From the NCBI GenBank assembly GCA_963793025.1, contig CAWBYL010000001.1, positions 266,454-290,453 on the forward strand: a stretch of 24,000 bases of DNA. The letters run 5' to 3'. Source of the DNA: an uncultured Actinomycetes bacterium (GTDB taxonomy: Bacteria > Actinomycetota > Acidimicrobiia > Acidimicrobiales > Acidimicrobilacustridaceae). Under the pieces are notes generated by a model. That model made no database searches and was not told where the DNA came from. It saw nothing but the letters and a program-made list of their open reading frames with translations. How positions within the stretch are numbered: the first letter of the stretch is position 1; each line of letters starts with the position of its first letter. This document shows positions 15,221 to 16,027 of this stretch, piece by piece. Position numbers and translations under genes: made by a program.

Positions 15221-16027
15221 TCAGGTGGCGAGGGTGCCGCCGTAGATCTGCCAGGCGAGGGCGCTCTTGGCCACCAGGCTGAGCACCACGTACACCTTCT
15301 CGCCATACAGATAGTCGGCGAAGCGTCCCTTGCCCCGATACTGCAGCCACTGGTTGAGGGCGAAGCAGTTGAAGAGCAGGAACAGCGTCACGAAGATCAC
15401 GTAGACGAAGGTCGGAACTCCTTCGCCCTCGCTGTTGGTCTGCGAGGTGACGAGGGCGATGGTGATCACGATCCAGGGCACCGCGCCGGCGATGCACCCG
15501 AACACGAACGGCCACCAGTTCACGCGGTCCCGAGTGCGGTTGACCTGCTCCATCACCAGCCCGAACAGGATCATCGAGGCGTTGACCCCGAAGAGGGCGA
15601 TGACGGCGTACAAGTTGGTGATCCCGGTGAGCAGACCGATCAGCACGATCATCAGGGAGGCGCTCACCGAGTACTCGACCCAGCGGGCCACGTTGAGCCC
15701 CCGCAGGAGGTTGGCCTCGTACCACCCCCGGACGCCGGGCGCGGCGACCAGCAGGTGGTCGGCGGCGGCGAGGAACAGGAACACGGCGATGCCGAGGGGC
15801 AGGCTGAAGTCGAAGAACGTCGTCGTCACCGTGAGCGGGGAGCCCGGCGGTCCGGTCTGCACGGCGGCCACGATCGGGATGGCGAACGAGGCACTGATGA
15901 CGAGGATGACCACGCCCTGGACGAGATGAGCCAGGCCGACCCCGAGGTTCCAGACGCGGAGGTTGTCGAGGCGATCGCGCTGGTCCGGGGTCGGATCGAC
16001 GGCAGCTTCGTCGTCAGGTGTCACCAC
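15221..16027 (-). CDS. Heliorhodopsin (7-TM retinal-binding protein, inverted topology; 268 aa)
   Basis: Track ORF with a GTG start at 16027. Seven hydrophobic helices are visible. Several blocks match what I recall of heliorhodopsin 48C12:
- RWVEYSVSASLMIVLI (48C12: RWVEYSLSSSVMIVLI)
- FGVNASMILFG
- FGCIAGAVPW
- FALNQWLQYRGKG
- VLSLVAKSALAWQIYGGTL (48C12: VLSLVAKSALAWQIFSGTL)

The candidate Schiff-base Lys is K254 (codon 15266-15268). The counterion-position Glu is E118 (15674-15676). His residues sit at 34 and 91. K/R cluster in the N-terminus and in loops 2-3, 4-5 and 6-7, which implies N-terminus in and C-terminus out. Confidence 0.9.
   Translation of the reverse strand: MVTPDDEAAVDPTPDQRDRLDNLRVWNLGVGLAHLVQGVVILVISASFAIPIVAAVQTGPPGSPLTVTTTFFDFSLPLGIAVFLFLAAADHLLVAAPGVRGWYEANLLRGLNVARWVEYSVSASLMIVLIGLLTGITNLYAVIALFGVNASMILFGLVMEQVNRTRDRVNWWPFVFGCIAGAVPWIVITIALVTSQTNSEGEGVPTFVYVIFVTLFLLFNCFALNQWLQYRGKGRFADYLYGEKVYVVLSLVAKSALAWQIYGGTLAT

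Follow-up and report, generated by a model that had tools for sequence, protein, structure and literature searches.

The closest described relatives of the gene examined here are two heliorhodopsins (HeRs): 48C12, which comes from an actinobacterial fosmid and belongs to Kovalev subfamily 1, and TaHeR, from a Thermoplasmatales archaeon. 48C12 shows a "positive-inside, negative-outside" charge pattern (PMC7049168), and in published work on HeRs and their partners, the contacts map to the cytoplasmic loops. Heliorhodopsins have been described as restricted to monoderms (PMC8612252). Here, we analyzed a stretch of 24,000 nucleotides, referred to as the window, from an uncultured member of the Acidimicrobiales (contig CAWBYL010000001.1, positions 266,454 to 290,453), which carries an HeR gene between queA and tgt. 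Our analysis confirms a genuine full-length heliorhodopsin of an Acidimicrobiales bacterium. We consider it very probable that it is a functional heliorhodopsin of the 48C12-like (actinobacterial) type and that it reached its place between queA and tgt through a single insertion of a self-promoted, probably leaderless cassette, a position that gives no evidence of coupling to queuosine synthesis.

The family assignment is carried by full-length matches to the Pfam model Heliorhodopsin PF18761 (315.3 bits against a cutoff of 26.7 bits; E = 3e-94; residues 23 to 266 on model positions 1 to 242 of 242) and to the NCBIfam HeR equivalog NF038020 (306 bits, with the cutoff at 100 bits; model positions 1 to 244 of 244), and no other Pfam family, type-1 bacteriorhodopsin included, matched the protein at E ≤ 0.01. 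The original prediction, made from the letters of the window, had called the gene a full-length heliorhodopsin, naming a hidden Markov model search and an alignment with 48C12 as checks and a better type-1 match as the outcome that would speak against it. These model matches bear it out, as do the sequence and fold comparisons with the PDB. Sequence matches in the PDB were to heliorhodopsins alone, namely, 48C12 (E = 3e-65), TaHeR (1e-59), and the eukaryotic Cv06 (3e-38). An AlphaFold2 model computed from an alignment of 44 sequences (pLDDT 86.6, pTM 0.84) features seven long helices and a short helix within a loop (residues 97 to 108), as well as a beta-hairpin at residues 49 to 75 in the AB loop between helices 1 and 2, with strands 49 to 56 and 67 to 75. 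When this model was compared with the PDB by Foldseek, the top 10 matches were all heliorhodopsin chains (TM score 0.80 to 0.89, E of about 1e-17 to 1e-15), with type-1 rhodopsins ranking far lower (TM score 0.5 to 0.6, E ≥ 1.8e-3).

Long spurious open reading frames (ORFs) are common in high-GC DNA, and several overlap the HeR locus in this window, whose GC content is 69%. Two of them run antisense to HeR on the plus strand (15203 to 16042 and 15435 to 15929); no supporting evidence was found for either, and they are probably chance ORFs of high-GC DNA. Despite this background, the idea that the HeR frame arose by chance, is a pseudogene, or encodes a type-1 rhodopsin is practically out of the question and is ruled out by the Pfam, NCBIfam equivalog, and Foldseek results described above. 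The frame is free of frameshifts and internal stops from its GTG start at 16027 to a TGA stop at 15221 to 15223, its codon-position GC (0.63/0.42/0.93) resembles that of the other real genes of the window, and every catalytic and pocket residue is retained. A second GTG at 16024 would yield the 267-amino-acid form found in public databases, and a 100%-identical protein of this length is already present in NCBI and ENA. The predicted ORF is real; it lies on the minus strand, a point that the original prediction had left unstated.

The protein was aligned with 48C12. K254 corresponds to K241, the retinal-binding lysine of helix 7, and lies inside the identical block SLVAKSALAWQI. E118 corresponds to E107, the single glutamate counterion of helix 3; S250 corresponds to S237 and replaces the second Asp of type-1 rhodopsins; and H34 and H91 correspond to H23 and H80, the His pair by the Schiff base. 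The lysine, the glutamate, and both histidines align exactly, and the residues quoted in the original prediction (H34, H91, R115, E118, and K254, the last in ...SLVAKSALAW...) are all correct. Its statement that the protein matches 48C12 "almost residue for residue" does not stand: identity amounts to only 113 of 247 positions (46%; 43 to 44% in Foldseek), and identical stretches are confined to the motif blocks RWVEYS and SLVAKSALAWQI. At the 45 positions described as structurally important in 48C12 by Kovalev et al. (PMC7049168), 36 residues are identical in the window HeR and 3 more are K/R swaps (conserved groups are listed in Table 1). The substitutions comprise S76A (A87 in the window HeR), S112A, S201T, R91W, and the dimer-contact pair D127N/Y179A.

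The residue pattern also bears on whether the protein might transport protons in a light-driven or light-gated manner, as the viral V2HeR3 does, a role for which we see only a very slight chance. To our knowledge, no transport has been detected for 48C12 itself. Some HeRs do transport protons (PMC9448325), and the fold and the Schiff-base chemistry are held in common with them. However, the 36 positions of the 48C12 type include the barrier L23/L107/L240 and P184, the counterparts of barrier and Pro172 features that are absent from the mainly viral subfamily 2 (Kovalev et al., PMC7049168). Moreover, the carotenoid-site motif is present in the window HeR, whereas the viral transporting subfamily is without it according to a 2025 preprint. 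The statement in the original prediction that heliorhodopsins have no demonstrated ion pumping holds for 48C12-like proteins but has been overtaken for the family at large, in which a viral HeR moves protons (PMC9448325).

Among the substitutions, the one at residue 87 (window positions ~15767 to 15769) extends beyond the single protein: this residue is Ala in each of the 44 relatives of the alignment but Ser in 48C12, which absorbs near 550 nm, and in TaHeR. Ser76 is a highly conserved but not strictly defining feature of the family; it donates a hydrogen bond to the counterion, and the S76A variant of 48C12 is red-shifted by 6 nm (PMC9726877). In addition, a quantum mechanics/molecular mechanics study proposes that Ser76 gates the transfer of the Schiff-base proton. 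The whole Acidimicrobiia HeR clade (44 of 44 aligned) is a natural S76A variant, a small clade-level difference for which a slight red shift would be expected, and the Ala87 clade could serve as a natural test of the proposed gating.

The membrane orientation can be predicted from the distribution of charges. Counted by the helix boundaries of the AlphaFold2 model, 10 Lys and Arg residues fall into the N-terminal tail (2), loop 2-3 (2), loop 4-5 (3), and loop 6-7 (3), whereas loops 1-2, 3-4, and 5-6 and the C-terminal tail hold no Lys or Arg and three Asp or Glu residues. This asymmetry of 10 versus 0, which agrees with the loop charges noted in the original prediction, predicts a cytoplasmic N terminus and hence an inverted topology.

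All six residues of a proposed carotenoid site are kept in the window HeR (F174, C178, G181, F219, N220, and A223). A carotenoid-binding fenestration made of these six positions was put forward in a 2025 preprint on the basis of docking and sequence motifs, and it would allow the protein to act as a light-harvesting "two-antenna" protein that holds exogenous xanthophylls at the lateral fenestration, rather than as a signaling photoreceptor. Besides the six conserved positions, the host fits this model: it belongs to the Actinomycetota and is a monoderm, in keeping with the described distribution of heliorhodopsins, and the two-antenna model requires a monoderm. Yet the proposal stems from one preprint, leaves unexplained how the energy would be used without ion pumping, and complements a sensor model instead of replacing it, and we regard it as improbable in its exclusive form.

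In the sensor model that we prefer, which draws on the literature on 48C12 and TaHeR, K254 would bind all-trans retinal through a protonated Schiff base whose sole counterion is E118, aided by S250 and S122. Light would move the Schiff-base proton to the group formed by E118, H91, and H34 inside the protein, without release, and a long-lived intermediate would then change the cytoplasmic face and thereby signal to a partner. The protein would accordingly be a slow photosensor or regulator rather than an ion pump, and a carotenoid might serve it as an antenna.

Next, we asked how widely the position between queA and tgt is shared. In 80 species-representative genomes with HeRs 51 to 80% identical to that of the window, queA and tgt were sought within 5 kb of the HeR gene; they were found in a single genome, the Acidimicrobiales metagenome-assembled genome (MAG) chromosome OZ257146.1, and were absent from the other 79. 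This chromosome, the closest genome to the window, has the same gene order, with 80% identity for HeR, 71% for QueA, 82% for Tgt, and 92% for RuvB. In three metagenomic loci (L092, L173, and L174/175), queA likewise immediately precedes HeR, and tgt follows HeR wherever the contig extends far enough; the first two share the order of the window, and L174/175 shows its queA-HeR part. In a neighbor-joining tree, calculated without support values, the queA/tgt-linked HeRs and the window HeR form one clade of five sequences. The HeRs just outside this clade, still 79 to 81% identical, lie beside P450/cupredoxin genes or luciferase-like/DUF4190/MFS genes.

Seen from the side of tgt, none of 80 metagenomic loci centered on the closest Tgt relatives held an HeR gene (0/80). 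The nearest HeR-less loci (Tgt 56 to 67% identical) show the order ruvB-queA-tgt-yajC-secD with a queA-tgt gap of 15 to 90 bp. Where this gap is wider (L109, L122, L131, and L172), it accommodates a GNAT acetyltransferase, a 4HBT thioesterase, a methyltransferase, or an alpha/beta-hydrolase plus a membrane protein. Since unrelated cargo is found there in other lineages, the queA-tgt junction is a recurrent insertion site. The simplest reading is that HeR was inserted once, at a permissive junction of an ancestral ruvB-queA-tgt-yajC-secDF cluster, in one narrow lineage, and was then inherited vertically, and its position between queA and tgt most likely reflects a chance insertion.

The linked loci differ from each other in small genes around HeR. 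In L092, the region between an intact queA and HeR (2106 to 2826) contains an extra ORF of 95 amino acids, predicted to encode a small three-helix membrane protein, and, just before HeR, a remnant encoding a peptide similar to the C terminus of QueA (RFLELSFGDAKLLTR...; tblastn E = 0.05), which suggests that the 3' end of queA was duplicated during an insertion. A gene of 142 amino acids without Pfam or NCBIfam match occurs on the opposite strand and lies upstream of HeR in the case of L173 (3076 to 3504, minus) but downstream of it in L174/175 (L174, 1055 to 1483, minus); the two copies are 86% identical, and the gene is absent from the window.

Actinobacterial promoters have the -10 consensus TANNNT, and leaderless mRNAs are frequent in this phylum. 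Hexamers of this type precede both HeR and tgt in the window (Table 1). A TANNNT hexamer is located 6 to 9 nt before the HeR start in 9 of 10 HeR loci, four of unrelated context among them. Against a window background of 14 TANNNT occurrences on both strands, only 7 of the 1,527 ATG or GTG triplets in the window have one 6 to 9 nt upstream, and five of these seven are credible gene starts (HeR, tgt, apt, codon 20 of ruvC, and codon 19 of orf169). The TAGATT box of tgt is kept in all four HeR-bearing loci, whereas most HeR-less relatives, in which queA abuts or overlaps tgt, have no such box. From the placement of the hexamer and general knowledge of actinobacterial promoters, we infer a separate promoter for HeR, from which a leaderless mRNA would be made.

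A scan from 13300 to 18400 for E. coli-type promoter and terminator consensus sequences gave no match, a result that is uninformative in actinobacterial DNA of such GC content. The queA-HeR spacer (16028 to 16090) may form a hairpin of -24.3 kcal/mol (z = -2.27; 4 of 200 shuffles were as stable), one arm of which overlaps the putative -10 box. No significant hairpin or terminator-like site was detected in the HeR-tgt spacer, for which comparison with shuffles in three loci gave z values of 0.2, 1.15, and -0.12. An Rfam scan of the whole window found no family at the gathering score and hence no riboswitch or known RNA near HeR.

Further TANNNT boxes on the minus strand lie 6 to 8 nt before the starts of apt (10514 to 10519), ruvC (~20541 to 20546), and orf169 (~23115 to 23120), the latter two with respect to an in-frame GTG at codon 20 of ruvC (20533) and an ATG at codon 19 of orf169 (23107). 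This arrangement suggests that leaderless transcription is widespread here and that the true ORFs of ruvC and orf169 are shorter than the longest-ORF calls. The extended motif CCTACGGTC (CCTA[CG][CG]GTC) has two copies in the window, at 16035 to 16043 and 23114 to 23122, both on the minus strand and directly upstream of a start codon, namely, those of HeR and of orf169 (151 amino acids); their sharing of the motif could reflect common regulation or chance. As a partner of HeR, orf169 was rejected: its product is soluble and belongs to no family, and no homologue was found near HeR in the loci compared.

The conserved neighborhood nevertheless raises the question of whether HeR acts on its neighbors, as a light-dependent regulator that binds Tgt and/or QueA at the membrane via its cytoplasmic loops and so tunes tRNA queuosine. 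The genes share a strand and are closely spaced (gaps of 59 and 54 bp), no terminator was found between them, and HeR has kept its position in five sequences, while QueA and Tgt diverged to 71 to 82% identity and small genes turned over. There are also precedents of HeRs that regulate a protein encoded next to them (PMC9529153, PMC9769723, and PMC11109279). However, the linkage is found in only a single shallow clade, being absent from 79 of 80 genomes and from all 80 tgt loci, and sister HeRs of ~80% identity reside in unrelated contexts. HeR and tgt each have a -10-like box of their own, unrelated genes occupy the same junction elsewhere, and neither tgt nor queA is among the recurrent HeR neighbors of two published surveys. 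The parts of the protein in which a partner would be expected to leave its mark are likewise unremarkable: intracellular loops (ICL) 1, 2, and 3 contain no diagnostic residue of the linked clade and no partner-specific signature, and they match those of sister HeRs from other contexts. Four clade-diagnostic positions are instead found in the N-terminal tail, the first extracellular loop, and transmembrane helix 6, with the window HeR itself an exception at three. A literature search retrieved no paper pairing heliorhodopsin with queuosine. Given the narrow distribution, the separate promoters, and the missing loop signature, coupling of HeR to Tgt or QueA is unlikely; its slim probability stays above zero because the position was kept through the turnover of small flanking genes. 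If it were true, a rhodopsin would for the first time be tied to the modification of tRNA, with light modulating translation, and the debated question of what heliorhodopsins do would gain a new, directly testable answer.

Several points weigh against our preferred reading of a working photosensor inserted by chance and transcribed from its own promoter. The leaderless promoter is deduced from a motif and from general knowledge. The evidence on cotranscription is divided: the genes lie on the same strand with no terminator found, yet they are set apart by gaps of 54 to 59 bp and by separate TANNNT boxes. Since no terminator was found between the genes, transcripts may run on from queA into HeR and from HeR into tgt. 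Furthermore, five diverged sequences retain HeR between queA and tgt despite the turnover of small genes at both junctions, which might point to mild selection for its position. Finally, no retinal-synthesis genes were seen in the 24-kb window.

The gene order on the minus strand of the window is ruvC-ruvA-ruvB-DUF559/MTES_1575-like-queA-HeR-tgt-yajC-secD-secF-apt-relA; the coordinates are collected in Table 1.

Table 1. Features of the HeR locus in the window and functional residue groups of the HeR protein
Feature	Position or residues	Strand	Remarks
HeR coding sequence	15221..16027	minus	268 codons plus TGA; ORF table, Pfam, and NCBIfam
TACGGT, TANNNT -10-like hexamer, putative promoter of leaderless HeR transcript	16036..16041	minus	8 nt before HeR start
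TAGATT, -10-like hexamer	15175..15180	minus	8 nt before tgt start
queA-HeR spacer	16028..16086	minus	59 bp
HeR-tgt spacer	15167..15220	minus	54 bp
queA (S-adenosylmethionine:tRNA ribosyltransferase-isomerase), upstream of HeR	16087..17142	minus	PF02547, 363 bits
tgt (queuine tRNA-ribosyltransferase), downstream of HeR	14036..15166	minus	PF01702, 469 bits
Downstream housekeeping block	7683..13998	minus	
yajC	13429-13998	minus	
secD	11717-13432	minus	
secF	within 10551-12194	minus	
apt	9914-10507	minus	
relA/spoT	7683-9908	minus	
Upstream gene block	17219..20590	minus	
DUF559/MTES_1575-like gene	17219-18184	minus	
ruvB	~18301-19350	minus	
ruvA	19389-20072	minus	
ruvC	20012-20590	minus	probable start 20533
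Schiff base	K254		conserved vs 48C12
Counterion and stabilizers	E118, S250, S122		conserved vs 48C12
His pair	H34, H91		conserved vs 48C12
Schiff-base cavity	N27, Y103, N112, R115, Y119, E243		48C12 N16, Y92, N101, R104, Y108, E230
Hydrophobic barrier	L23, L107, L240		conserved vs 48C12
Glu149 region	E160, Q229, Y239, W116, Q226		conserved vs 48C12
Retinal pocket	F83, M126, M152, I153, F219		conserved vs 48C12
pi-bulge proline	P184		48C12 Pro172

The gene between ruvB and queA encodes a product of 321 amino acids whose C-terminal domain is DUF559/MTES_1575 endonuclease-like and whose N terminus weakly resembles AbiEi_4. A 56%-identical homologue occupies the same position in L173, and L001 and L092 carry an opposite-strand Ppnp gene there instead, so the ruvB-queA gap is variable as well. 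Divergent from ruvC, an ABC-2 transporter pair (~20700 to 22633, plus strand) encodes a DrrA-like ATPase and an ABC2 membrane protein, an arrangement kept in L001. By analogy with OcHeR-OmrDE, we considered this pair as a partner of HeR and discarded it: it is encoded on the other strand at a distance of more than 3.5 kb, and ruvCAB, the DUF559-like gene, and queA lie in between. Farther off, kdpA and kdpB (2103 to 6058, plus strand) encode subunits of a potassium-transporting ATPase; the longest ORF of kdpA begins 56 codons upstream of the Pfam domain, and its true start is probably later.

The window HeR is a routine addition to a large known family. Among 8,000 candidates scored, at least 7,735 proteins were homologous at E ≤ 1e-10, and the nearest named relatives come from MAGs of Acidimicrobiales, Iamiaceae, Microthrixaceae, and Ilumatobacter. 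Five MAG records titled "Bifidobacterium" (L009, L017, L024, L045, and L061, with L024 and L061 titled "Bifidobacterium breve") hold HeRs 68 to 72% identical to that of the window, and these labels look wrong. With thousands of heliorhodopsins known and named automatically by the NCBI pipeline, the gene is of little import on its own. Its interest lies in its setting: it provides a clean natural case of an HeR gene with an apparent leaderless promoter of its own inside a conserved housekeeping cluster, and thereby a caution for function prediction from gene neighbors, which has driven most recent work on heliorhodopsins.

Compared with known systems, the protein is closest to 48C12 (PDB 6SU3, 6SU4, and 6UH3), with a full-length alignment and TM scores of 0.81 to 0.89. 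The two share the Schiff-base Lys, the Glu counterion, the His pair, the cavity, the retinal pocket, the pi-bulge Pro, the polar clusters, the carotenoid motif, and the same charge asymmetry. Apart from their limited identity and the substitutions listed above, Ala87 for Ser76 among them, they differ in that the N-terminal tail of the window HeR is acidic and extended by 11 residues and that loops 4-5 and 5-6 each contain one inserted residue. TaHeR (PDB 6IS6 and 7U55; TM score 0.80 to 0.88) shares the helix-7 block and the counterion; it differs in its archaeal origin, in an AB loop of other length, in the Ser at the Ser76 position, and in an identity of 42 to 44% (Foldseek). With type-1 rhodopsins, such as bacteriorhodopsin, xanthorhodopsin, and sensory rhodopsin II, the window HeR has in common the seven-helix retinal fold and the lysine in helix 7. 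In contrast, it is 10 to 17% identical to them and has no match to the Pfam family Bac_rhodopsin, its topology is predicted to be the reverse of theirs, and its Ser250 takes the position of the second Asp counterion.

At the level of the locus, the same-strand, closely spaced genes and the basic cytoplasmic loops resemble the pairs AbHeR-glutamine synthetase, TfHeR-photolyase, and OcHeR-OmrDE ABC transporter. Unlike in those operons, queA and tgt fall outside the ten recurrent neighbor groups, the linkage is limited to one clade, the loops bear no signature, and each gene has its own -10-like box, with gaps of 54 to 59 bp between them. The surroundings correspond to the E. coli-type queA-tgt-yajC-secD-secF cluster, whose gene order is kept and in which close relatives retain the short queA-tgt gap of 15 to 90 bp; here, in contrast, an 807-bp HeR gene with a -10-like box of its own splits queA from tgt, and tgt is preceded by a separate TAGATT box.

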